Assembly (NCBI GenBank): GCA_964016885.1
Contig: OZ024749.1
Coordinates: forward strand, 22,816,001-22,880,000
Length of the DNA stretch: 64,000 bases
Reading direction: 5' to 3'
Origin: Eledone cirrhosa
Lineage: Eukaryota
The notes beneath the pieces are model-generated. The model was not told the origin of the DNA. It saw only the letters and a list, made by a program, of their open reading frames with translations, and ran no database searches. Below, piece by piece: positions 3,279-56,260 of this stretch. The position numbers were made by a program, and so were the translations under genes. The first letter of the stretch is position 1. Each line of letters opens with the position of its first letter.

Positions 3279-4345
3279 ATGCAGGTATGTATGTGTATGT
3301 ATGTATCTATATGTATGTGTATGTATGTATATGTGTATGTATATATATATATATATATATATTTGCGTATATATATATATATATATATATGTATATGTGT
3401 GTATATGTGTATGTGTATTCGTATGTATATATATATGTATATATATATATATTTAATACAATAACAGAGATTGTTTAAAGCTAAAATCTGACTGGTAACC
3501 ATCTCACTCAACAAACATTAGGTTATATTTAAATATAAGCCCAATTTAAGTGTTTGGGGTGCTAATAATATGTATAATCTGGAAAAACCAGTTGTATTAT
3601 TTTATGAGATATAATTAAAGTTAAAGTATATCTCTCTTTCCAAACAATTGTTTCATTATAAGTTTTCTACAAGTTGGGAGAATATTTCCAGTTTATGTAG
3701 AAGCCTAATATATATTCATGTAAGAATATATTTAGGTGGGCGTTTATAAATCATCAGTGGAAGTTCATTAAACTTTGATATAAGAAACAAATTCTTACCG
3801 CAGTCAAAAATCGTGTCTGTTAAGTTGCTCCTTCTCGCATCCAATGACCGCGAAATTTGAATTCTAGTATCATAGCGACACCAAGCGGGAAGGGGAGACA
3901 ACTACGATCCACGAAAGGAGGAAAAAAATAATATACACGCGGGTTAATTAGTTTTTTCGAAAACATTATCAATCCAACGTGTTAAGAACTCAATTCAAAA
4001 TTAAAAAAATAAATACATGCGTGTATAAATTACACACGCATATAGATATTTTCTTAGGCTAAAATCAGAAGTTGTACCCGAATAAGAACCGCATCTCATA
4101 ACCGCAGTAAATACAGAAAGTTATGCTTTAAAGGGCAAATGGGAATGTAAATATCCGGCCGAATTAAGAGTAAAATATAAAACACACGCGGGTTAATTAG
4201 TTATTTCAAAACTAATATCAATTCCTCGTATAAAGAACTCAATTAATTAAAGAAAATAAATGTATGCATGTAATTATATACATAGGCATATATATATTTT
4301 CTGCGGCTAAAAAACAGAGAAGTTACAACCCCAAAAAATATATGT

Positions 4346-4397
<52 letters not shown>

Positions 4398-4430
4398 ATA
4401 TATATATATATGTATATGTGTTTGTATATA

Positions 4431-4461
<31 letters not shown>

Positions 4462-4499
4462 GTATATGTGTATGTATATGTATATGTATGTATGTGTGT

Positions 4500-4535
<36 letters not shown>

Positions 4536-5544
4536 AAAAAGGGATGAAATCGAAAATGCAGCTGAAGTCTTATTTTTTTAAAAAATATATATATTTATTT
4601 GGTTCCTTTACCGGTTTCGCAGTTCTTCTGCTTTTAAAAAGGTGAGTTGAGATGGATGGTCTGTGGTTTTTCTCACATCTGGTTGGTCTCTAAATGTTAC
4701 TTGTTTTATATGGAAAAAGTGGCTCGAAAACCAGGTTTTTCGAGAAGTAATTTGATTGGTTTGTCAATAATTATAATAAATTTCGCGCCAGTTCGCGTTA
4801 CAATAGTTCTTCAAATAAGAGAGGGGGGGTTGTCACAGGTTGTTTTTTCATATATGAGTGTTTGAATTTCTTTTTACTTGAAAAAATGAGGCTCACGAAG
4901 GCTTTTTTTTGGTTGGTTATAAATAAAATTTGGCTGTCACGTGAACAAGTTTTCATTACATTTTTGCGCCCTTATTTGAAAAACTATTCTGTAGTCTTTA
5001 TAGTGAATGTTATGACAATGGAGAGATAGTGGTCAAGGGAAAAGGGATTGGGAGAAATGTTCTGGTTCAGTGAATATGGCCAGCTGTCAGAGTTCAGGTG
5101 TCAGAGTTCAGATTTTCTATTGAGACTGAAGATATGTGTTTATTTGTGTGCTTGTGTGTATATGTGTGTGTGTGTGTGTGTATGTGTGTATTGGAAGATG
5201 ATTCTATTAGTAGAGATGGGGGAGGGAGTTGTGTGTGTGTGTATATGGGTGTTATGTGTGTGTGTGCGAGTATGTTAGATAGAGAGAATATATATTTTGT
5301 GTGTGTGTATATATATATGTGTGTAGGAAAGTGGTTCTATTAGTAGACATGGGGAGGGTGTTGTAGGTGTGGGGGTTGTTATGTGTGTGTATGGGTGTTA
5401 TGTGTGTGGGAGTATGGTTAGCATGTTAAGATGAAGAGAATATATATATATATATATATTGTGTGTGTGTGTATGTGTGTGTGTGTATGTGTGTGTGTAG
5501 GAAAATGATTCCTTTAGTAGGAATATTTTTGAATATTTTTGAAT

Positions 5545-7787
5545 CGGCACAAACCGATTTTGAAAAACCGAAAATAATTAACATTTCAAATACAAACCTC
5601 TCAGCCCAACAAGTAAAAATTCTCTCCAAAGGTCTGAAATTCACACCAACACCACAATATCCTAACCCCAACGAGATAAATGACGATATCTCACACTTCT
5701 GTAGAAAATTACGTCTCACAGAGGAATTCTTTGACAAGGAGAATAACGACGAATAAAAGCAGCTACAACCCAACAAAAGGTAGAAACAGAGTTCTGGACA
5801 AATTTTGTGACCACATAGCTACCTTTCCATACCATGAACTACCGCAACCTAAACCCAAACCCAACACAAGTCGAAGGGAATGGGAGATTATCCATGAACT
5901 AAAAAACAATCCGGACATTGTAATTAAGGAAGCGGACAAGGGAAGTACTGTTGTCATTATGGAGGCTGAAAAATATAAAAATTCTATGTTCTCTCTCTTA
6001 CAAAATGCTAATTACTATGAAAGAGTAAAAAACTACCAGCAATCAAACATAATGACCAAATTAAACACACTGATTTATCGATACCAGGAAGACCTAACTA
6101 AAAAGGAACGCGATTATTTAACAAATTTTGAATACAAAACCAGCAACCTTTACGGACTTCCGAAGATCCACAAATGTAAAATAATCAACGATGCCTGTAA
6201 ACAATCCACCTCAGCCTGCGTGAACACACAATACCCCTCAGACCTTAAATTAAGACCAATTGTAGCGGGCCCACAATGTGAAACACACAGATTGAGCAAC
6301 TTTATAGACATACTACTGAAACCAATACTGAAACACATACCAAGCCTTGTAAGAGACGATCTGGACCTCTTAAACCACCTCCCCAAACATGTCAACAACG
6401 ACACTATTATTGTGTCTTTCGATGTAGTGAATCTCTACACAACGATCCCACACCAATACGGACTAGAAGCAATAGGATTCTGGCTAGAGAAATATCCCAA
6501 TGAGATACCTGACAGAATAGAAAAAAGCTTCATCACCGAGGGATTAAAATTCATCCTACAGAACAACTTTTTTGATTTCGATGGCAATACTTACAAGCAA
6601 ATATCGGGGACTGCGATGGGCACAAAAGCCGCTCCAACTTATGCCAACTTAGTCATGGCATACTTAGAAGTCCAGATATATGAACAGTCCAAATCAAAAT
6701 ACGGATTGAACTTCCACAAATATTTATCAGAGAATTGGAAACGCTACTTGGATGATTGCCTCATTCTTTGGTCTCACACACTCGACCAACTGAAGGATTT
6801 CAAAAACTTAATAAACGGCATCAATAACCACATCCAATTCACAATGGAATACAGCCAAGATTAACTCCCATTTCTGGATATCTTAATCACAAAAAAAGAC
6901 ACAAATATCGAAACAGACATACACTACAAACCAACAGATTCCAAACAATATCTGCTATTCACCCCCAACCATCCAAAGCACACGAAGACGAACATTCCTT
7001 TTAACCTAGCAAGAAGAATTTGCACAATTGTCTCCAATTATGAAACGCGAAATAAAAGACTTCAAGAATTAAAGGAAATTCTACTTGAGAGAGAGTACCC
7101 ACTATTACTAATAAATAATGGAATAGAAAGGGCTAAAGCAATAGGCATTGATGAATTACGGAAACAGAAACAAATTCAAGGTACGTCCAATATTCTATCA
7201 TATATCTCAACACACAACCCAAGAAATGTGGAAGCTTACAACACTATTCACTATAACATCCCACTACTAAAACAAAACCCAAGAATGAAAAAAGCCCTTG
7301 AAACACACAAAATAATCAAAAGCAAAAGACAACCAAAATCACTGAAAACATTACTCACCAATGCCAAATTACCTACCACAAACCCACAACCAAGTATCAA
7401 AAAATGTGGTCGCTCTAATTGTGGAACCTGCACTCACCTCATTGAAGGCAACACGTATACATTTAAATCAGGACAAAATTTTACTGTAAAAAATCACTTC
7501 ACTTGCTCATCAAAAAATCTAGTTTATACCATTAAATGTAAAGGATGCAATGAAGATTATATAGGACAAACTAAACTCACACTCAGAAACAGAATGACAG
7601 TTCATCGCCAACAATTACGAGATCCAACCACGAGACAGATACCACTAAGTGCCTATCAAGTAATAAGACACCCACATTCCAAGTCTTCCCATTTTACCTT
7701 TGCGCTAACAATACAACAGAACAAATGCGAATAAATAAGGAAAATATGTTTATTCAAAAATATAGACCAACATTAAATAAGGTTTAA
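5545..7787 (+). pseudogene. Penelope RT + GIY-YIG endonuclease ORF, 5'-truncated and disrupted
   Basis: Motifs NLS..L.KGLKF.P, EADKG, YGLPKIHK, LRPIV, SFDVVNLYT, GTAMGT, RYLDD, LPFLD, Cys-rich linker CGRSNCGTC, NLVY..C..C...YIGQT and terminal KE.MFI.KY.P.LN. Frameshift ~5750, in-frame TAA at 6862-6864, deletion/frameshift ~7655. Confidence 0.93.
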
Positions 7788-8814
7788 TATACATTATGTC
7801 AACACCACAATATGACATACACTCACACACATAACACCTTCTACTTTAGAAAATAAAAACCCGAACTAAATAAACCTTAAACATACGTTTGCACTGGCAA
7901 TACAACAGCAAACACGAAAAAGTCAGGAAAGTTCATTCAAAAATATTCCTACTAAAGGAATCATTTTCCTACACACACACATACACACACACACAATATA
8001 TATATATATATATATTCTCTTCATCTTAACATGCTAACCATACTCCCACACACATAACACCCATACACACACATAACAACCCCCACACCTACAACACCCT
8101 CCCCATTTCTACTAATAGAACCACTTTCCTACACACATATATATATACACACACACAAAATATATATTCTCTCTATCTAACATACTCGCACACACACACA
8201 TAATACCCATATACACACACACACACAACTCCCTCCCCCATCTCTACTAATAGAATCATCTTCCAATACACACATACACACACACACACACACATATACA
8301 CACAAGCACACAAATAAACACATATCTTCAGTCTCAATAGAAAATCTGAACTCTGACACCTGAACTCTGACAGCTGGCCATATTCACTGAACCAGAACAT
8401 TTCTCCCAATCCCTTTTCCCTTGACCACTATCTCTCCATTGTCATAACATTCACTATAAAGACTACAGAATAGTTTTTCAAATAAGGGCGCAAAAATGTA
8501 ATGAAAACTTGTTCACGTGACAGCCAAATTTTATTTATAACCAACCAAAAAAAAGCCTTCGTGAGCCTCATTTTTTCAAGTAAAAAGAAATTCAAACACT
8601 CATATATGAAAAAACAACCTGTGACAACCCCCCCTCTCTTATTTGAAGAACTATTGTAACGCGAACTGGCGCGAAATTTATTATAATTATTGACAAACCA
8701 ATCAAATTACTTCTCGAAAAACCTGGTTTTCGAGCCACTTTTTCCATATAAAACAAGTAACATTTAGAGACCAACCAGATGTGAGAAAAACCACAGACCC
8801 TCCATCTCAACTCA

Positions 8815-8852
8815 CCTTTTGAAAAGCAGAAGAACTGCGAAACCGGTAAAGG
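8815..8852 (+). ncRNA. Minimal hammerhead ribozyme, U3-A8 variant, in Penelope pLTR
   Basis: cctt-TTGAAAA-gcag(aagaa)ctgc-GAAA-ccgg-TA-aagg. The mirror copy at 4605-4642(-) has G5>T. Confidence 0.7.
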
Positions 8853-8983
8853 AACCAAATAAATATATATATTTAAAAAAAAAATAAGACTTCAGCTGCA
8901 TTTTCGATTTCATCCCTTTTTCTTTATACTTTCACTCGTGTAGGACACCTCGGTTATTTTTCATTTTGTAAAAAAAACCTCAC

Positions 8984-9089
<106 letters not shown>

Positions 9090-9254: not shown

Positions 9255-9490
9255 TGCTACTGTACGTCTGTATACATATATGTATGTACGTATACATACA
9301 TACTTACATTTAAGTAAGTGCCGTATAAGAGTGAGAAATGAAATTTCGTTTTCATTTTATTTCAACTTATCGTTTTCGGTATGCCTGACCGACTTAACTC
9401 ACTCGTTATGCAAATTAGGCTGCTCAGCCGTTGATTTTCATAAGGAAAGTATATACTTTCGAACGTTCAACTATCTGGCAGAAGGGTATA

Positions 9491-9531
9491 CGGTGCTGAT
9501 GATAGCTAACAAGCTTGAAACTAGTACATCG
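9491..9531 (+). ncRNA. Minimal type-I hammerhead ribozyme
   Basis: cggtg-CTGATGA-t agct(aaca)agct t-GAAA-ctag-TA-catcg; palindromic stem III. Confidence 0.85.
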
Positions 9532-9749
9532 TTCCTGTGTCAGTGTTGAACAAAAAGATTACGTGGTTGCCTTAACAGCGTACGGCATAAATTCAGGCTG
9601 TTCAGTCTGTTTACAAACGAACAAAGCGGCGATATAATAAGCGTCCGCTAAACTGATACGTGCATATATGTATGTGTACCTGTATGTATATATATATATA
9701 TATATATTTCGTTTCTGAATTTATTGGCAACATGACCCTGCCAAATTAT

Positions 9750-9793
<44 letters not shown>

Positions 9794-10027
9794 TACTGTA
9801 CGTCTGTATACATATATGTATGTACGTATACATACATACTTACATTTAAGTAAGTGCCGTACTAAGAGTGAGAAATGAAATTTCGTTTTCATTTTATTTC
9901 AATTTATCGTTTTCGGTATGCCTGACCGACTTATCTCACTCGATATGCAAATTAGGCTGCTCAGCCGTTAATTTTCATAAGGAAAGTATATACTTTCGAA
10001 CGTTCAACTATCTGGCAGAAGGGTATA

Positions 10028-10068
10028 CGGTGCTGATGATAGCTAACAAGCTTGAAACTAGTACATCG
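10028..10068 (+). ncRNA. Minimal type-I hammerhead ribozyme (second unit)
   Basis: Identical to 9491-9531. Confidence 0.85.
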
Positions 10069-10219
10069 TTCCTGTGTCAGTGTTGAACAAAAAGGTGACG
10101 TGGTTGCCTTAACACCGTACGGCATAAATTCAGTCTGTTCAGTTTGTTTACAAACAAACAAAGCGGCGTTATAATAAGCGTCCGCTAAACTGATACGTGC
10201 ATATATGTATGTGTACCTC

Positions 10220-10319
<100 letters not shown>

Positions 10320-10431
10320 GGCTACTGTACGTCTGTATACATATATGTATGTACGTATACATACATACTTACATTTAAGTAAGTGCCGTACCAAGATTGA
10401 GAAATGAAATTTCGTTTTCATTTTATTTCAA

Positions 10432-10471
<40 letters not shown>

Positions 10472-12399: not shown

Positions 12400-13004
12400 T
12401 TGGTAAACGGAATAGAAAATGCTGACAAATTGTTCACAGTTGAAAAATGGTTTAATTAGGAATAAAAGAGTATTAGTGATTGTATGGGTTAGTATTCAGT
12501 TGTGGTTTTAAGTTTTTTAAGTTTTTACCGGTTGCGCATTTCTAAATGCTTTTCAAAAATAATTTTGAGATAGAGTGTCCGTGCTGTTTGCTCTGATCTG
12601 ATTAGTTTTGGGAATTCTACCTGTTTTTATGTTAAAAAAGTGGCTCCACCGTTATTTTTGTGTTGCAAAAATGCTTGTGGTCAAAACAATTTTGATTGGT
12701 CGGTAGAGGTCATGTGAATGTAAAAAGTTGATTTTGCGCCAAGACTGTTTTTATGTTAAAAAAGTGGCTCCAGCAAAAATCTTGGTCAAAACAATTTTGA
12801 TTGGTCGGTAGAGGTCATGTGGATAAAAAATTGTTTTTGCGCCAAGATTGAGAAATGACTCTTTCACAACAAATATGTGTGTGTGTGTGTGTATGTGTGC
12901 GTGTGTGTGTATATGTGTGTGTGTGTGTGTAGTAGTAGTAGTAGTAAGGTGTTCGATGCTGCGACAATGGCCAGCAGCGATGTGTGTCAAATGGCTATTA
13001 AGAT

Positions 13005-13578: not shown

Positions 13579-14047
13579 TTGTTGTGAAAGAGTCATTTCT
13601 CAATCTTGGTGCAAAACCAATTTTTTATCCACATGACCTCTACCGACCAATCAAAATTGTTTTGACCAAGAATTTTTGCTGGAGCCACTTTTTTAACATA
13701 AAAACAGTCTTGGCGCAAAATCAACTTTTTACATTCACATGACCTCTACCGACCAATCAAAATTGTTTTGACCACAAGCATTTTTGCAACACAAAAATAA
13801 CGCTGGAGCCACTTTTTTAACATAAAAACAGGTAGAATTCCCAAAACTAATCAGATCAGAGCAAACAGCACGGACACTCTATCTCAAAATTATTTTTGAA
13901 AAGCATTTAGAAATGCGCAACCGGTAAAAACTTAAAAACTTAAAACCACAACTGAATACTAACCCATACAATCACTAATACTCTTTTATTCCTAATTAAA
14001 CCATTTTTCAACTGTGAACAATTTGTCAGCATTTTCTATTCCGTTTA

Positions 14048-14052
<5 letters not shown>
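12400..14052. mobile_element. Large fold-back (700-bp inverted arms, ~245-bp loop) of Penelope-related pLTR
   Basis: 12400-13099 is the reverse complement of 13343-14052. Shares accaatcaaa and gagccactttt..cata.aa blocks with the pLTR at ~8697-8755. Both arms carry a TTGAAAA/GCAA/ccgg/TA hammerhead variant (12522-12558 -, 13893-13930 +). Confidence 0.8.
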
Positions 14053-14113
<61 letters not shown>

Positions 14114-14160
14114 TATATATATATAATATAAGATCAAAAGATGGTTAAAGGAGTTCCATG

Positions 14161-14231
14161 TATTTTATTATGCGCATTTCAAAAACAAACATCATCATGC
14201 AATAATATTTGTGTTTTCATCAGATAAAACA
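14161..14231 (-). ncRNA. Type-I hammerhead ribozyme (mirror arm)
   Basis: Reverse complement of 14333-14403 with intact core. Confidence 0.88.
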
Positions 14232-14332
14232 GGAGAACATGATATGAAGGCTAAAGAACACTTGTGGATAGTGCAGTTTTAAATCAACTGCACTATCCAC
14301 AAGTGTTCTTTAGCCTTCATATCATGTTCTCC

Positions 14333-14403
14333 TGTTTTATCTGATGAAAAAACAAATATTATTGCATGATGATGTTTGTTTTTGAAATGCGCATAATAAA
14401 ATA
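14333..14403 (+). ncRNA. Type-I hammerhead ribozyme
   Basis: tgttttat-CTGATGA-aaaacaaatatta...tgatgtttgtttt-GAAA-tgcgca-TA-ataaaata. Confidence 0.9.
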
Positions 14404-14524
14404 CATAGGACTCCTTTAACCATCTTTTGATCTTATATTATGTATACTCCAGTCCTACAAACTGTAGAGTGCTTCTTATCCGATATCTGCATTGCTTTAT
14501 TGTACTACAATAAAACTCACCTCC

Positions 14525-14570
<46 letters not shown>

Positions 14571-14575
<5 letters not shown>

Positions 14576-15776
14576 AATTAAGTAAGTTAATTGCTATAAT
14601 TTTATTATTTTACGTCTTTCATATAATTGTTCTACATTTTTGTATTGAACCACAAAGTTACTAAGACAAAACCTATATCTTGCTAGCGTAAGTATACATC
14701 TGTATAAATATGTTGGTAGATATACTAATTCTTTATAATTATCTCCAAATTATTTTGTTGAGCAAAAATTTGCCTAAATTACTACTATGGTTCATAGGTA
14801 ACATTTTGGCTACTGTCTTGTTAACACCCCACTCCTCACTGATTAACCTCGATGTCACGTGATAGATTCTTTTGAATTTGCCACTGACCGGGAAGGCAGT
14901 GAAATTTTCAGTGCCTTGAAATTTAGTCCACGTTTGCTTTTTTTTCCATTCACTGAATTATTTTTGTTTGAACTCCCTGTGTCCGCCTATCGCTAGGATT
15001 CTTAGCCGAGAATTGACTCCCTGCTGAAGAAAGGATTCTCCATAGATTAAACACTATGTATATCCCCTTTCAGAAACTAATTAGTTGGAATGAAACTTAA
15101 ATATGTAAGTTAATTATTATAATTTTATTATTTTACGTCTTTCATATAATTGTTCTACATTTTTGTATTGAACCACAAAGTTACTAAGACAAAACCTATA
15201 TCTTGCTAGCGTAAGTATACATCTGTATAAATATGTTGGTAGATATACTAATTCTTTATAATTATCTCCAAATTATTTTGTTGAGCAAAAATTTGCCTAA
15301 ATTACTACTATGGTTCATAGGTAACATTTTGGCTACTGTCTTGTTAACACCCCACTCCTCACTGATTAACCTCGATGTCACGTGATAGATTCTTTTGAAT
15401 TTGCCACTGACCGGGAAGGCAGTGAAATTTTCAGTGCCTTGAAATTTAGTCCACGTTTGCTTTTTTTTCCATTCACTGAATTATTTTTGTTTGAACTCCC
15501 TGTGTCCGCCTATCGCTAGGATTCTTAGCCGAGAATTGACTCCCTGCTGAAGAAAGGATTCTCCATAGATTAAACACTATGTATATCCCCTTTCAGAAAC
15601 TAATTAGTTGGAATGAAACTTAAATATGTAAGTTAATTATTATAATTTTATTATTTTACGTCTTTCATATAATTGTTCTACATTTTTGTATTGAACCACA
15701 AAGTTACTAAGACAAAACCTATATCTTGCTAGCGTAAGTATACATCTGTATAAATATGTTGGTAGATATACTAATT

Positions 15777-15780
<4 letters not shown>
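14571..15780 (+). repeat. Tandem array, 523-bp period (~2.3 units), hammerhead in each full unit; retrozyme-like
   Basis: tacgtctttc at 14611, 15134 and 15657. Motif tcc-CTGCTGA-agaaagg...cctttca-GAAA-ctaattag-TT-gga at 15018-15089 and 15541-15612 (A6>C). Confidence 0.9.
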
Positions 15781-15852
<72 letters not shown>

Positions 15853-16237
15853 GATCGAGTATCGAAAAATCGGCGCACGAGTTCACGATAAACAATATTC
15901 GAAATGAGCGGCAGAGGGCTCAATAATTCAGATGAATCAGAGCTATAACTATCGTTAAAATACCGTCACACATAGAACAAGTCTAAAATCAACCATACGA
16001 TAAAAAATCGATAATAGAAGATTCGGGACAAACAGATAAAAAATATCAATAAAACAATACATCAATAATTTAAATGAATGTAAAATCATACCCGGACCCA
16101 CTAGAAAGGTGTTAAATCTAGCTTCTTGGGTTTCTGTAAATCCTTAGACTGTACTCTATCAGCTCACATATAAATATATAAGGCTACTAGAGCAAGAGGA
16201 ATGGAGTTTACTTCATCAACGAGCTTTTTCCTAGCGG

Positions 16238-22110: not shown

Positions 22111-22113
<3 letters not shown>

Positions 22114-22534
22114 GGAGGTGAGTTTTATTGTAGTACAATAAAGCAATGCAGATATCGGATAAGAAGCACTCTACAGTTTGTGGGACTGGAGTATGCATAA
22201 TATAAGATCAAAAGATGGTTAAAGGAGTTCAATATATTTTATTATGCGCATTTCAAAAACAAACATCATCAAACAATAATATTTGTGTTTTCATCAGATA
22301 AAACAGGAGAACATGATATGAAGGCTAAAAAAACACTTGTTGATAGTGCAGTTTTAAATCAACATATCATGTTGATTTAAAACTGCACTATCAACAAGTG
22401 TTTTTTTAGCCTTCATATCATGTTCTCCTGTTTTATCTGATGAAAACACAAATATTATTGTTTGATGATGTTTGTTTTTGAAATGCGCATAATAAAATAT
22501 ATTGAACTCCTTTAACCATCTTTTGATCTTATAT

Positions 22535-22536
<2 letters not shown>
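22111..22536 (-). mobile_element. Palindromic hammerhead element (same family as 14124-14528, opposite orientation)
   Basis: Tail 22111-22197; inverted arms centred ~22367. Intact hammerheads at 22235-22305(-) and 22429-22499(+). Confidence 0.9.
22429..22499 (+). ncRNA. Type-I hammerhead ribozyme
   Basis: tgttttat-CTGATGA-aaacacaaatatta...gatgtttgtttt-GAAA-tgcgca-TA-ataaaata. Confidence 0.88.
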
Positions 22537-22578
<42 letters not shown>

Positions 22579-35894: not shown

Positions 35895-36581
35895 AATATA
35901 TATATATATATGCACACGTATATATATATATGCACATATACATATATGTATATATATATATGTGTGTGTCTATATACATATATATATATATATATGTATA
36001 TATATATGTATATAGACACAGATATATGTATACATATATATATATGCCTATATATATATATATTTGGTGGTTGCCAACTCGTTTTCGAGTACGGCCACTA
36101 CTTTATATCCATGTAGGAGAACCCCTACCGATGGGCTGAACGAGTGTGACTTTTTAGTCCAGCCAGCGACTTGCAAACTCTGATACAAACACTACACTTG
36201 TGACAATTATAGACACATAGTGCTGGGCGCATGGTACCATGTGACGACAAGTGCAGAGAGATCTCCACATACAAAGCAAAGGGCAAAGGAGCTCTTAAGA
36301 GTCAATGGCCATCCAAAATCACTGGGAGAGATGACCCCTTAGCCTTTGTCAAGGCAGAATTCTAGGAGAAGGAAAACTCTGATATAACACCTGCAGCCCT
36401 GATGGTATCCAATGATGCTGACTTGTTCTTCATTTTGGTAAATATCATCTTGGTTAAGAGAGTGGGACTGGCTTTGTCCAGTGCCTTTGCTCACTATAAA
36501 AGCTTCACGGCACAGGCATATATATATATGAGAGACGTAAAACAAGAAAATTAAAACATTAACTTACTTACTAAAATTTCA

Positions 36582-36660
36582 CTCCAACTAATTAGTTTCT
36601 GAAAGGGAATAAACATACTTTCCGAAGAAACGTACGGAGAAGCCTTTCGTCATCAGGGAA
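36582..36660 (-). ncRNA. Type-I hammerhead ribozyme
   Basis: Reverse complement reads ttcc-CTGATGA-cgaaagg...cctttca-GAAA-ctaattag-TT-ggag. Confidence 0.85.
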
Positions 36661-37105
36661 GTCTATTCTCGGCTAAGTTTCCAGGCAATACGTGGACACA
36701 GGGAACTTATACAAAAATAATTCAGTGGATGGACAAAAGCAAAGCGTGGACTGAATTCCAAGCCATTGAGAAAATCACTGCCTACTGCGTCGGTGGCAAA
36801 TTCAAAAGAATCAATCACGTGACATCGCGGTCAATCAGTGAAGAGTGGTTTGTTAAGAAGACAGCAGCCGAACTGTTACTATAGTAGCAGTTTTGGCCAA
36901 TTTTTGCTCGACAAAATAATTTCGAGATAATTATAAAGAATTAGTATATCTAGTAACATATATATACACAGATGCATACTTATGCTAGCAAATATATAGG
37001 TTTTGACTTAGTAACTTTGTGGTTCAATGCATGGGGATGCAGAACAATAATATGAGAGACGTAAAATAAGAAAATTATAAAATTAACTTACTTACTAAAA
37101 TTTCA

Positions 37106-37184
37106 CTCCAACTAATTAGTTTCTGAAAGGGAATAAACATACTGTCCGAAGAAGCGTACGGAGAAGCCTTTCGTCATCAGGGAA
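37106..37184 (-). ncRNA. Type-I hammerhead ribozyme (second unit)
   Basis: Same motif 524 bp away. Confidence 0.85.
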
Positions 37185-37303
37185 AGTCTATTCTCGGCTA
37201 AGTTTCCAGGCAATACGTGGACACAGGGAACTTATACAAAAATAATTCAGTGGATGGAAAAAAGCAAAGCGTGGATGACTGAATTCCAAGCCATTGAGAA
37301 AAT

Positions 37304-37334
<31 letters not shown>

Positions 37335-37373
37335 GTATATAAATATATATGTATGTATATATATATATATATG

Positions 37374-37413
<40 letters not shown>

Positions 37414-42708: not shown

Positions 42709-42864
42709 TACTTGATATCAAGAATATCTATTTTGTTAATATTTTGAATTAATATTAATAACTCTGGAAAACCTTTTATCACTGTTGAGTGCTTCCAATC
42801 TATTGTAAAACTCATTCTTTGATGTATTCATTGAACCTTGTTCAACTTTTAAATATATATATAT

Positions 42865-43273
42865 CATGATATTAAATAAATGGAAACTATATTTCAAAAA
42901 CCATATTTATTTTATTATATATATTTCAAGGGCAACCAAGACAAGCTTGGTGCGCTTTCATCAGATAAAATCCAAAGTTTGTTTTATAAATTTCTAGGAA
43001 TAAATTTTTATGAATTTCTAACCGATAATGTTTGTTTTTTCATGGGTACGTCTTTATTTATAAAACAAACTTTGTATTTTATCTGATGAAAGCGCACCAA
43101 GGTTGTTTTGGTTGCCCTTGAAATATATATAATAAAATAAATATGGTTTTATAAATATAGTTTCCATTTATTTAATATCATGGAATATTTACTCCAGTAA
43201 GCTGTTGAGTGCTCTAAAATAGTTATAAACATTTATGTTTGTCGAACTTCCAACAAATTAAATACAACTTCTA
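42865..43273 (+). mobile_element. Palindromic hammerhead element with 3' tail
   Basis: Arms 42865-42991 and 43057-43182. Hammerheads at 42908-42971(-) and 43075-43139(+): tattttat-CTGATGA-aagcgcacc...ggttgccctt-GAAA-tatata-TA-ataaaata. Confidence 0.88.
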
Positions 43274-45212: not shown

Positions 45213-45502
45213 CTTAAATAATCATAATAATACACAGACACTCACAGGAAAACTGACAAATTTACTTCATATGTCTTAGTGTCAAAACTTTCAGAATGAT
45301 GTTAGTGACCTGGTTACTGACCCAATGTGGCTGCCAGTGGTCATGATGCAAGCAATGTGACGACATTTTAACACCGTGAAATAAATGATACATCTTAAAG
45401 GGAACAAATAGTTTTTGTGCGTTTTCGATAGTTTCTTTACATGTATGTATGATATTAATATGTTTGCATCTTGTATTAACACAAACTATGAAATATATGT
45501 AC

Positions 45503-45565
<63 letters not shown>

Positions 45566-45589
45566 CATACATATATATATATATATACA

Positions 45590-45769
<180 letters not shown>

Positions 45770-45778
45770 TATATGTAC

Positions 45779-45815
<37 letters not shown>

Positions 45816-45963
45816 TATGTATGTCCACCACTCTGCCTCACACCATTGGAACTCTTTCCCTGCCCACTTTTTTCCCGATGAAGGGCTTATGCCCGAAACG
45901 TCGTCCCTCACCCCACACTCTCAAGCGTGACCCTAATACTAAAACTGTTTGTACTGCCATATT

Positions 45964-47952: not shown

Positions 47953-48048
47953 ATGTATATTGTATATATATATGTATATGTATATATATATATGTATCTT
48001 TGTATATATATATATATATGTACATGTATGTAGATATATATATGTATA

Positions 48049-48095
<47 letters not shown>

Positions 48096-48106
48096 CTATG
48101 TATATG

Positions 48107-48146
<40 letters not shown>

Positions 48147-48189
48147 TATATGTATCTATGTATATCTATATATATATGTACATGTATGT

Positions 48190-48289
<100 letters not shown>

Positions 48290-49016
48290 GATTCCACCTG
48301 GTTGTGGTGGGGTTGATAACGTTAGGACCCAATGTATTCTAGGAAGTGTAGCTGTGGTGAGAATCGGCAGTGTGACCGGTAATTATTTTGGTAGTTGATC
48401 ACCACTTAAGGTATACTCGGGTGTTTCTGAGGAGGAAGGCCAATTGAAGATGGTTCTCGAGATAGTAATGGTTAGTAAATTAATCACTACTATGTTAGTT
48501 GATATATTCATTTCCACCATTCAATCAACCCTCTGAAACGATCGTAAAACAATGAACTAACTATCTACCAACATGAGACTTCTGTTTCTATTGTTCGAAC
48601 ACTCACACACACACACACACACACACAAACACATACACACACACATACACACAGACACACATACAGATACACACATACCCCCCTCCCTCTATATATATAT
48701 ATGAAAGGAAGTAAGAATATTCGTTTCTGAAGGCTAATTCACGTTTGTGGAAATGAATATGTGAAGCAAAGAATTGAAAGTGGCAGTTTAGCGGTTAGTT
48801 GTGCTCAACGTAGTCGGTGGAGTTGAGTAACATGAGTATCTTAATGATACGAGAGGCGTCATCGTGCTTGCTACACCACAGTCACGGCTGGAATGACTAT
48901 AGATTTCAGAAATTATGACCGTTGTGCTCGAATCAATCAAACAGAGATCAATTTCAACTTCCATAATCGACAAATATAAATTTAAATACCAAATCAAAGG
49001 AATGATTATATCATAG

Positions 49017-51027: not shown

Positions 51028-51030
<3 letters not shown>

Positions 51031-51436
51031 GAGGTTATATTTAATTTGTTGTGATTCAACAAGTTTAAAAAAAAATTATAACTGATATAAAGCACTTAAC
51101 AGTTTAGTGGAGTAAATATACAATATATTAATAAATGGGAACTATATTTATAAAACCATAATTATTTTATTATATATATTTCAAGGGCGACCAAGGTAAA
51201 TTATGGTGCGCTTTCATCAGATAATATACAGATTTGTTTTATAAATAAATATTGACATACCCGGAAAAAAGACAACCTCAACGGTTGAAATTCGCTGGAT
51301 AGTCCATTTATAAAACAAATATGTATTTTATCTGATTAAAGCGCACCATAATTTACCTTGGTCGCCCTTGAAATATATATAATAAAATAATTATGGTTTT
51401 ATAAATATAGTTTCCATTTATTAATATATTGTATTA
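51028..51436 (-). mobile_element. Palindromic hammerhead element (family of 42865-43273)
   Basis: Tail on the left. Intact hammerhead 51163-51228(-); mirror 51324-51389(+) has CTGATTA. Degenerate copy at 50029-50192. Confidence 0.85.
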
Positions 51437-52383: not shown

Positions 52384-52680
52384 GAGCAAAAGGGATATTT
52401 ATTTTGTTGGTAATTCAACGAATATACATGTTTATAACTAATTCGAAGCACTCGACACTTTTTCTAGAGTATAATAGTCAATGATATTAGATAAATGGAA
52501 ACTATATTTATGAAACCATATTTATTCTATTATATATATTTCAAGGGTAACAAAACGTTCGTACGCTCTCATCAGATAAAATACGAAGTTTGTTTTATTA
52601 ATATTGACATATACAGGAAGAAGATCTTAACGGTTCAAGTTTTCCAGAGGAAAAAATGGAACCGTTAAGATCTTCTTCTT
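52384..52680 (-). mobile_element. Hammerhead element with 5' terminal hairpin (family of 42865-43273)
   Basis: Hammerhead 52523-52583(-) with CTGATGA/GAAA/tatata/TA; hairpin gaagaagatcttaacggttc...gaaccgttaagatcttcttc. Confidence 0.8.
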
Positions 52681-52694
52681 ATATATATATATAA

Positions 52695-52784
<90 letters not shown>

Positions 52785-52803
52785 CTATGTATATGTATAT
52801 ATA

Positions 52804-52852
<49 letters not shown>

Positions 52853-52903
52853 CTATGTATATCTATATATATATGTACATGTATGTAGATATATATATGT
52901 AGA

Positions 52904-52987
<84 letters not shown>

Positions 52988-53099
52988 AGAAGAGTCAGGG
53001 CCGCGACGGCTGAGCACCGGCCATTTCGACAGCTAGTTCTGGACTCGCTGTCGAAACGGTCGGAGCTCAGCCGTCGGTGTCCTACCTCTTTTCCTATTA

Positions 53100-53146
<47 letters not shown>

Positions 53147-53368
53147 CATATGTGAATGTGTGTCTGAAAATTGAATGGAATCAGATAAAATGGTTACATT
53201 TGGAGCGTCTGTGTTCAGAAAACCACACGATCACCATTAATACCATTTAATACATGAATAGAAGTATTCATGTATTTAACGTCTACTAGAGATGAATGTA
53301 TAGACTATATACAACGAAAAGTCGATTTTCCTTTGTATCACTTTAAACATACATACATATCAGATATA

Positions 53369-53405
<37 letters not shown>

Positions 53406-53416
53406 TTTGTCTCAGT

Positions 53417-53485
<69 letters not shown>

Positions 53486-53671
53486 GACGTATAAGAACAT
53501 GGTTCAGACATACAGCCCTTCTATACCTCCCCTTTTGTCAACCCTGTTCTCCTGTCTATATTTACGCTCGCGTGCTCCATTACACAATTGTGAATATACA
53601 ATATTGTCTGAAATCAACAGCTGCATACATACATACACATATACATACGTATATGCATCAGTACATAAATT

Positions 53672-53884
<213 letters not shown>

Positions 53885-53948
53885 GTATGTATGTATATTC
53901 ATGTATACATACATTTTAACATGAGTATATATATATAAACATATAAAA

Positions 53949-53993
<45 letters not shown>

Positions 53994-54012
53994 TATTTAT
54001 ATATATTTATAT

Positions 54013-54099
<87 letters not shown>

Positions 54100-54984
54100 C
54101 ACATTTACACATATATGCCTCCCCTGCCCAAAAGGATAATAAAAAATATATACATAAATATATACAAATATATACAAACATATACAAATATATACAAATA
54201 ATTTTGTAGATTCAACAAGAAATTAAAAATTAATAAAAAAAAACGACACACAGACACCCGACAAAAATCCAAAAATTAACCTAAAGAATTTTAAAATATT
54301 TTTTTACATTTTATTTCCCTCCTCCAAATTTTATTTCCTTCATCTATATTTTATTTCGTTCTATCATTATATATTGTGTTGTTTTATTTTTTGTTTCCAT
54401 AAAATATTTCTTGTAGTCTTGGGTTTGTTTTGTTGTTTTAGTTTATTGAATTGTTTGTTATAGTTTTACTTATTTTTTGTACCTACGATATATATACACA
54501 CGTATATATATATATATGTATATACAGTATACATACATATATATATATATATATATGAAAATGTATGTATGTGTGTATATTAATATATGTATATGTATAT
54601 ATATGTGTATATATATGTGTATATATATACACATATATACGTATCTAATTGAGTTTTTTTTTTTTTTTTTCATCTTTCTACATTGTCTGACATCAAATGT
54701 TGTGATTTATATTTGCAATTCAACTGTGTCAACAGAAATTGACTATAAAATTATTCACAACTTACAGAGAGAAAGAAAGAGACAAAAACACATTTTTTTT
54801 TTCTCGAAAATTCGAAAACGGAAAAACAACAAATACAACAAGACAAGAATATAACACAAAAAAATCAATAGATACATAAACAAACAAGAGGGTAGATGAA
54901 ACTTCATGCTTTGATTATATATTCCTCCATTTGGAGAGTTTAAATATTTATTTGTATATACAAAACACTTATATATGTATGTAT

Positions 54985-55068
<84 letters not shown>

Positions 55069-55177
55069 ATATATATATATCCACACATAATATATACATA
55101 ATGTATGCATATATATATATATATACATGTATATATACATATATATACATATATATATTTGTATATAACTAAGTATA

Positions 55178-55258
<81 letters not shown>

Positions 55259-55312
55259 ATATATATGTATACACACATAATATATACATAATGTATGTAT
55301 ATATATATATAA

Positions 55313-55364
<52 letters not shown>

Positions 55365-55386
55365 GTATATATCTAAGTAAATATAT

Positions 55387-55463
<77 letters not shown>

Positions 55464-55978
55464 CATATATATTTATTTAAATGTATATAAATGTATATTT
55501 ATATATATATATGTATATTTGTAAATATATAAATATATATATATATATTATTTAAGTCTATACATGTATTTATAAACATAAATATGTGTACATATTTATA
55601 TATATTCAAATTGTGTTTATTTTATATTGATTTTGAATATAAAGTTTTGAATAAAGTTATGTTATTTTGTTAAGGTAAAAGCAACAATGCACACGCATGC
55701 AAACAGGAATACTCATACACATAACCACAGAGAGGCATATATACATACATGTCTACACGCGTACATACGCCTAACTGTATACCTGAAATTGAATACAGAT
55801 AAGTATGCATACCAATCTATGCAATAATATGTATGCATTTATCTATATTTATATATACTGTATATATGCAGACCTGTATATACCTGTATACGTGTATCTT
55901 ATTCCCACTTTATATACACATATAAGGATATGCTCATAAGTACACATATAAACACACGCAGACACTCAAACACACGCA

Positions 55979-56026
<48 letters not shown>

Positions 56027-56029
<3 letters not shown>

Positions 56030-56258
56030 CACCGTAATTTTGACTAAAGGAATTTTAGCCTGATAATGGGGTTTAGACCCCTCAGATAAATGGAAAAAGG
56101 TGAATATTCATCAGGTGTACGTCAATACTCATCTTTTTCCATTTATCTGAGGGTTCTAAACCCCATTATCAGGCTAAAATCCCTTTAGTCAAAATTACGG
56201 TGAAAGCTATTCTATTTTCTAATTTCAAACCTGCTCACTGTTTCAAAACATACTTACT

Positions 56259-56260
<2 letters not shown>
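56027..56260 (+). mobile_element. Fold-back element with 3' tail in (TA)n
   Basis: ~75-bp inverted arms 56027-56102 and 56130-56205 plus a 55-nt tail. No hammerhead core recognised. Confidence 0.7.

Follow-up and report, generated by a model that had tools for sequence, protein, structure and literature searches.

What kind of insertion leaves a short DNA palindrome with a tail at one end only? The question is raised by a locus at 14.1 kb in a 64,000-nt stretch of the Eledone cirrhosa genome (contig OZ024749.1), the whole of which is called the window below. The unit (14118-14528) consists of two 161-nt arms that are 98% complementary, a 7-nt spacer between them and an 82-nt tail on one side (Table 1). 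The outer end of the inverted arm (14118-14278), GATCTTATATTAT, is referred to here as the proximal start point, and the tail spans the distance from this point to a distal start point, where its end, ...CCTCCTAC, adjoins (TA)n. The inverted arm reaches 7 nt further than its partner, and the direct arm of the focal locus is therefore slightly more 5'-truncated; L030, which has another haplotype, is the one further locus with the same type of junction. We interpret the locus as a severely 5'-truncated Penelope-like element (PLE) insertion in (TA)n that was probably made by reverse transcription from both cut strands, and we put the probability of this interpretation at roughly 85%.

Table 1. 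Features of the focal locus, of the full element in L045 and of the other palindromic units in the window. Positions are those of the window unless L045 is named.
Feature	Position	Strand	Basis or remark
Left (TA)n microsatellite, part of insertion target	14050..14117		sequence
Inverted arm, tail-less copy of element 3' region	14118..14278	-	arm alignment
7-nt centre TTAAATC	14279..14285		further 7-nt extension of inverted arm
Direct arm, sense, same 161 nt of element	14286..14446	+	arm alignment; genomic copies
82-nt tail, direct arm only	14447..14528	+	sequence; corresponds to the PLE tail of PMC8557442 (relevant sections) and PMC11167929
Right (TA)n microsatellite, part of target	14529..14572		sequence
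Minimal type I hammerhead motif, direct arm	14329..14407	+	core scan, covariation; predicted cut after 14395
Same hammerhead motif, inverted arm	14157..14235	-	core scan; CUGAUGA start 14223
L045 inverted truncated copy with tail	1424-3752 of L045		full element layout
L045 pseudo-LTR	3788-5075 of L045		full element layout
L045 ORF, two frames	5092-6426 and 6411-7556 of L045		overall 5092-7556
L045 3' end at proximal point, without tail	8727 of L045		full element layout
22.1-kb copy (L047), same family as focal unit	22111..22542	-	opposite orientation to focal unit
Family B palindrome	42856..43273	+	arms, tail on right, hammerhead motif in both arms
Family B palindrome, tail on left	51028..51434	-	arms; one hammerhead core intact, other mutated
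Third family, same layout	56022..56260	+	arms and tail; no hammerhead core in arms
4.5-kb Penelope-like element, another clade	4529..8988	+	arms, ORF with RT and GIY-YIG

The initial annotation had listed the palindrome-plus-tail layout at 14.1 kb and at five further loci in the window, and we found it at all six. The 22.1-kb copy has arms of 174 nt (22192-22365 and 22369-22542; 99% complementary) and an 81-nt tail at 22111-22191. It shares the outer breakpoint GATCTTATATTAT with the focal locus, the fold points of the two copies lie near each other, and variants specific to each locus are common to both of its arms, all as first described. Family B is represented by the 42.8-kb locus, with 136-nt arms (42856-42991 and 43056-43191; 94%), a 64-nt centre and an 82-nt tail that runs to 43273, and by the 51.0-kb locus, with 129-nt arms (51118-51246 and 51306-51434; 97%) and a 90-nt tail (51028-51117). 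The arms of the 56-kb locus are 87 nt long (56022-56108 and 56124-56210; 93%) and its tail is ~50 nt. In the 4.5-kb element, an inverted 956-nt copy (4529-5484) is matched by the 3' region at 7971-8928, which is followed by a tail of ~60 nt (8929-8988). The ORF of this element (5680-7734, one in-frame stop) reached the Pfam cut-offs for both RVT_1 and GIY-YIG and is of the type with DKG and a CX4CxxC linker. Since its ORF is of another type than that of the parent element described below and it has no detectable hammerhead, the short palindromes are not copies of the 4.5-kb element.

The parent was found outside the window. A search of the genome (3.0 Gb) with arm plus tail returned 358 candidate matches, 40 of which were scored, at 96-100% identity, and 30 loci were fetched. 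Sixteen of the 30 were short palindromes like the focal one, three had a partial or rearranged inverted arm, three were short copies without an inverted arm, and eight extended upstream into a longer shared element. An adjacent inverted arm accompanied 19 of the 30 copies (16 full, 3 partial) and was also present in L032 and L045. One long copy (L005/L032) is itself a palindrome, with 1.28-kb arms, and its inverted arm stops at the same outer point. When an internal 401-nt piece of the longer element was used as the query, 1813 candidate matches were obtained, and the 40 that were scored were 99-100% identical. The focal arm and tail are the last ~257 nt of this element, which is ~3.7 kb long. 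No RT ORF was present upstream of L009 (L031), and the parent was instead found via the internal sequence; an ORF with a Helitron helicase-like N-terminal domain (L031 3233-5077, minus strand, E = 1.4e-57) lies near a copy of the long element.

The layout of the full element was taken from L045 (Table 1). The direct repeats at 3788-5075 and at 7505-8727 are its pseudo-LTRs (pLTRs), and their tandem junction, CCTCCTAC to ATTAACTTG, was also found in L018. The first ORF frame (5092-6426) carries YRDD and DKT and aligns collinearly with the RT motifs of the PLE in the window, while the second (6411-7556) contains a GIY-YIG core (IYE...YFG...R..NH) with a single C within it, together with CxxC and CxH and without CCHH; a CxCX5C linker is present in the ORF of the inverted copy in L045. 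The parent ORF had no Pfam match at E<=0.01, and its hhalign comparison with the RT of the window's PLE was weak (probability 2.2%), so the RT call is based on motifs and on the neighbours of the ORF in the Atlas, which are clusters with GIY-YIG and RVT_1 and were treated as leads. Furthermore, a homologue (P0002) that is 32% identical to the parent ORF reaches the Pfam cut-off for GIY-YIG (22.6 bits). A PDB sequence search with a 4-sequence profile gave one match at E = 0.29, which was taken as chance.

The relevant sections of PMC8557442 describe a Hydra clade of C-terminal EN+ PLEs that has DKT in place of DKG, a CxCX5C linker, CxxC, CxH, no CCHH, and RWK. The parent resembles this clade, as those sections present it, in DKT, CxCX5C, CxxC and CxH near the EN core, the lack of CCHH, the hammerhead and the (TA)n target, but its ORF has RWT rather than the RWK described there, and its unit of ~3.7 kb exceeds the size given for the clade in the same sections ('generally <3 kb'; PMC8557442). 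The parent ORF carries Hydra-clade PLE motifs, and its apparent placement in that clade follows from the motif list.

Insertions of EN+ PLEs are described in PMC8557442, within the sections that deal with them, as highly 5'-truncated, with an inverted 5'-truncated copy beside the direct one and a tail at one end; pLTRs derived from partial tandems, a hammerhead in the pLTR and insertion into (TA)n are also reported there. These features are credited to Evgen'ev and Arkhipova 2005 and Arkhipova 2006, as cited in the corresponding part of Craig et al. 2021 (PMC8557442). Here we found GIY-YIG, pLTRs, an inverted 5'-truncated copy, a one-sided tail, a hammerhead motif in the pLTR and a (TA)n target. 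The palindrome is therefore the published architecture of PLE insertions (PMC11167929 and the pertinent sections of PMC8557442 and PMC4209133) and not a new class. The focal family differs from the published EN+ PLEs in that its copy is cut to ~257 nt without an ORF and that many copies fold at one point. Its tail, at 82 nt (50-90 nt across the families in the window), is also longer than the 30-40 bp given for EN+ PLEs in the same part of PMC8557442.

To define the ends of the insertions, we compared 55 distinct palindromic loci. These are a non-random sample of 16 loci from the best arm-plus-tail matches and 39 selected because they resemble the 22-kb junction (of 614 candidates, 40 loci were scored and 39 fetched), and the recurrence of those junction types is therefore inflated. 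Altogether 80 locus records corresponded to 69 distinct loci, since some had been fetched on both strands. The outer end of the inverted arm lay at element coordinate 221 (GATCTTATATTAT) in 47 of the 55 loci and at 214-220 in the other eight, and in no case (0/55) did the inverted arm of this family, family A, carry the tail. Fold points fell at element coordinates 46-49 (ATATGTTG...) in most loci. The defined ends proposed in the initial annotation were thus observed, with one coordinate for most inverted arms and fold points within a few nt. Among eight adjacent inverted arms of family B, five ended at the proximal point of that family, one had the tail and two ended further in; in the head-to-head pair at G000:C1:314879877-314880312 both arms appear tailed, the only such case among the eight listed. 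The outer end of the direct arm, ...CCTAC, adjoined (TA)n in 28/55 loci. In 8/55 it was ...CCTACATTA, whose four extra letters are those with which the following tandem unit begins; the template therefore probably extended beyond the unit boundary. On the target side, TATATA stood directly outside the inverted arm in 41/55 palindromes, and 12-nt direct duplications flanked L002 and L083, which lie in imperfect TA repeats (e.g. TATGTGTTTATA). At the centre, the junction CAACATAT-CATG-ATATGTTG was found in 11-12 loci, CAACAT-G-ATATGTTG in eight and its mirror image in eight. In all three there is an additional C on the cDNA strand, at a position where G would be templated by the parent; this would be in keeping with a capped 5' end of the RNA to which a few letters were added without a template.

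At its start, directly 3' of the proximal start point, the tail contains TACTCCAG...CTGTWGAGTGCT in both family A and family B (14449-14473, 43192-43215). The motif is supported by sequence conservation between these two families only, and a small hairpin, in which no covariation was detected, is possible there. The fold energies of the tail hairpins were unremarkable (z between -1.8 and +1.2).

The arms were then compared over 139 columns. Arms of the same locus differed by 0.67 positions on average in the 55 loci, with no difference in 27 loci, one in 20, two in seven and three in one. Identity of the arms in 27/55 loci is consistent with a route in which a single cDNA, made from one target strand, folded back and primed itself, so that the inverted arm was copied from the first cDNA and not from RNA, and the self-complementary ATAT/CATATG in the 5' region of the RNA could seed such a fold-back. 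We nevertheless consider this route unlikely. In L045 the tail-less copy, which comprises pLTR, full ORF and 3' region, is longer than the inverted copy that bears the tail, and therefore it cannot be a snap-back copy of the latter. In addition, the fixed outer end of the tail-less arm matches the second in vitro RT start site of another PLE (PMC11167929), and the asymmetric, mirror-image junction types Jb and Jc occur eight times each relative to the tail.

A further alternative is that the palindrome is itself a mobile unit, MITE-like or foldback, that is copied whole with its arms as terminal inverted repeats. The recurrence of identical non-trivial junctions, such as the one with CATG above, speaks for it. 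However, arms grouped by locus and not by side: the between-locus means were 2.9 differences for left against right arms, 2.77 for left against left and 3.01 for right against right, without side-specific fixed differences, and none of 10,000 permutations of the arm pairing gave a total as low as the observed one. Inside single junction classes, 0, 0 and 8 of 10,000 permutations reached the observed value. The three recurrent junction types each occurred on 5-6 different arm haplotypes, with the haplotype common to both arms of a locus, and the 16 loci chosen independently of the junction had at least 11 different junctions. Moreover, arms of 161 nt to 1.28 kb have the same outer breakpoint, they are the 3' end of an ORF-bearing retroelement, and the one-sided tail makes the unit asymmetric. 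Copying of whole palindromes is accordingly very improbable. Since arms pair by locus without side structure and the junctions lie on varied haplotypes, each palindrome was formed anew, and the view in the initial annotation that both arms come from one template was borne out by the 55 loci; the clustering of arms by side that it had named as contrary evidence did not appear.

An assembly artefact, for instance from a chimeric long read, is scarcely credible: no read obtained spans the focal centre, the best public contigs (X1-X4, 60-150 nt) are too short to bridge the palindrome or its (TA)n flanks, and 0-3 RAD-seq reads cover 14295-14309 (X21-X23), but the 55 loci have the same element-defined outer ends in unrelated flanks, 0-3 private differences between their arms and, in places, 12-nt target duplications, raw Illumina reads from other individuals connect tail-less ends with (TA)n (56-80 reads), 97 reads in X21 contain the head-to-head junction of a further copy, and the pattern is already published for PLEs. 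Two TGCGCA sites enclose a palindromic fragment of 213 nt, which may just fail to be amplified in RAD-seq. In RAD-seq data from three individuals, reads begin at the TGCGCA of the helix III loop (14386-14391, 14173-14178), with 1134-1530 ends at 14386, so that reduced-representation libraries of this species sample these elements heavily.

One pattern in the arms is not predicted by a simple one-template model. Seven arm discordances (in L001, L002, L013, L014, L021 and L030) fall at element positions 182 and 184, which are 14407 and 14409 in the window, and each of them puts the rarer base in the tail-bearing arm (sign test p = 0.016, post hoc), while the other 30 discordances had it in the inverted arm 15 times and in the tail-bearing arm 14 times, with one tie. 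A-to-I editing as the sole cause was rejected, since the substitutions at the two sites run in opposite directions (A versus G and G versus A).

The preferred interpretation, a truncated PLE insertion primed from both target strands, would proceed as follows. The GIY-YIG endonuclease would cut both strands of the TA repeat. From one 3' end a cDNA would be started at the distal site, following ...CCTAC, and from the other at the proximal site, which lies 82 nt further upstream, and because the two cDNAs would have different start sites, the tail would be on one side only. Both cDNAs would run to the 5' end of an RNA stretch of ~257 nt that begins inside the pLTR at ATATGTTG. This short RNA, whose start and cap are deduced from the DNA junctions, probably represents the capped leader of the transcript of the element. 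The two cDNA 3' ends would then join head to head, by template jumping or by AT microhomology.

The second strand of the target also primes reverse transcription in LINE-1 twin priming, which gives an inverted segment; the two segments are then adjacent, non-duplicated parts of one RNA. In contrast, both arms here are the same segment, and each arm has its own fixed start site.

A closer parallel to the proposed steps is found in Poseidon PAc of Anolis, the subject of the sole biochemical study of PLE insertion, which concerned this one vertebrate element (Frangieh et al. 2024, PMC11167929). The purified protein cleaves and extends both strands of an AT-rich target, two adjacent internal RT start sites are used and the tail is the stretch between them, and a hammerhead lies upstream of the start sites, with the uncleaved RNA as the main template (PMC11167929). 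The focal family matches this picture, but it belongs to another PLE clade, and here the steps are deduced from genomic copies alone. In addition, TTATATTAT, the stretch that contains the proximal start point of the focal family, is TA-rich and could pair with (TA)n, whereas no homology to the target is reported for PAc (PMC11167929).

We also considered the hammerhead motif. The direct arm contains helix I, the CUGAUGA that lies at 14341, a long helix II, GAAA and the palindromic UGCGCA; in each arm with the motif the order is CUGAUGA, long helix II, GAAA, palindromic hexamer (UGCGCA/UAUAUA), UA and the 3' strand of helix I. The initial annotation had described the elements as carrying one ribozyme per strand. 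The motif was indeed present in both arms at 14.1, 22.1 and 42.8 kb, but the description does not hold at the 51.0-kb locus, where one arm has the intact motif and the other a mutated core (CTGATTA), and at the 56-kb locus and the 4.5-kb element, in whose arms neither the motif scan nor Rfam found a hammerhead core. The 4.5-kb PLE thus has 956-nt arms without a hammerhead core, though the literature places one in the pLTR of canonical PLEs. Rfam gave no hammerhead match over the whole window at gathering score, and at E<=10 no hammerhead was among the matches listed for the whole window and the locus; the matches that were listed, to microRNA models, lay on microsatellites or in the long hairpin and were taken as chance.

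An alignment of seven sequences from the window was tested on one named structure. In this structure 93.2% of cells were paired, compared to 33-57% with the partners slid, and both-sided pair changes were present at 6 of 19 pairs, among them four of the seven helix II pairs and the two pairs that make up the palindromic loop. The putative ribozyme is in this way supported by covariation in two families (four loci). According to the relevant part of Cervera and de la Pena 2014 (PMC4209133), the hammerheads of metazoan PLEs are minimal, dimer-type, type I motifs with a long helix II in the pLTR. Both these and the motif described here have a helix III of 1-2 bp and a palindromic loop (UGCGCA/UAUAUA) suited to dimers, as that part of PMC4209133 has it. 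They differ at pair 10.1-11.1, which is A-U or G.U here instead of the usual, highly conserved G-C (PMC4209133, same part), and at the fourth pair of helix II, a conserved pyrimidine mismatch found here in six of the seven aligned sequences. The predicted cut lies 51 nt upstream of the proximal site. Since the fold points lie elsewhere, the cleaved RNA was not the usual template, and the uncleaved RNA probably was. The inverted arms of L012 and L015 are alike in breaking off at the palindromic loop of the hammerhead, GCGCATTTCAAAATGCG, and take a different course beyond it, which suggests a template switch at this loop.

The mechanism of PLE insertion is called undefined in the discussion section of PMC8557442. 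The focal family consists of hundreds of very young natural insertions in which each arm has one start, the 5' end of the RNA is a common one and the cDNA ends are joined. Because these insertions show start points, the RNA 5' end and joins, they may serve as in vivo read-outs of the model with two strands and two start sites, and such read-outs would concern a PLE clade other than that of Poseidon PAc. For annotation, small 'palindromes with ribozymes' belong among the PLE stubs to be masked rather than in a new element class.

If the element's mRNA starts in the upstream pLTR, its start signals would also be present once near the cap, and a stub of fixed length would result. A broader proposal, which we regard as speculative and rather improbable, is that the palindromic stubs would be a by-product of internal initiation on the capped leader of the mRNA, where a second set of RT start signals would lie ~257 nt from the cap. 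A dimeric enzyme on two sister RNAs would prime both target strands, the junctions (the extra G and the ATATGTTG end) would record the transcription start, and the stubs would act as a hairpin reservoir and a trigger of RNAi or editing. If this were true, the stubs, numbering hundreds to thousands, would together be a genome-wide source of perfect-hairpin RNA against the leader and ribozyme of the element, with a built-in trigger for RNAi or editing, and the junctions would preserve the element's transcription start in DNA.

RNA of the focal unit (14118-14528) had a folding energy of -265.5 kcal/mol compared to -74 for shuffles (z = -36.8). As modelled, a read-through transcript of the locus would form a 161-bp hairpin that would bury both ribozyme cores. 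In the initial annotation such dsRNA, from transcription in either direction, was proposed as a potential substrate of ADAR or Dicer.

Other repeats were observed in the window. Directly left of the focal locus is an inverted repeat of 274 nt, 99% complementary, with copies 891 nt apart (12507-12780 and 13672-13945). Inverted repeats of 300-430 nt, 80-88% complementary and apparently microsatellite-rich, occur at 45493-45822, 47961-48300, 52680-54116 and 55106-55539. Tandem repeats of ~537, 523 and 524 nt, 95-99% alike, are located at 9300-10440, 14850-15925 and 36300-37375; each has a hammerhead-like core (CUGAUGA/CUGAAGA...GAAA), and together they look like retrozyme-type arrays.
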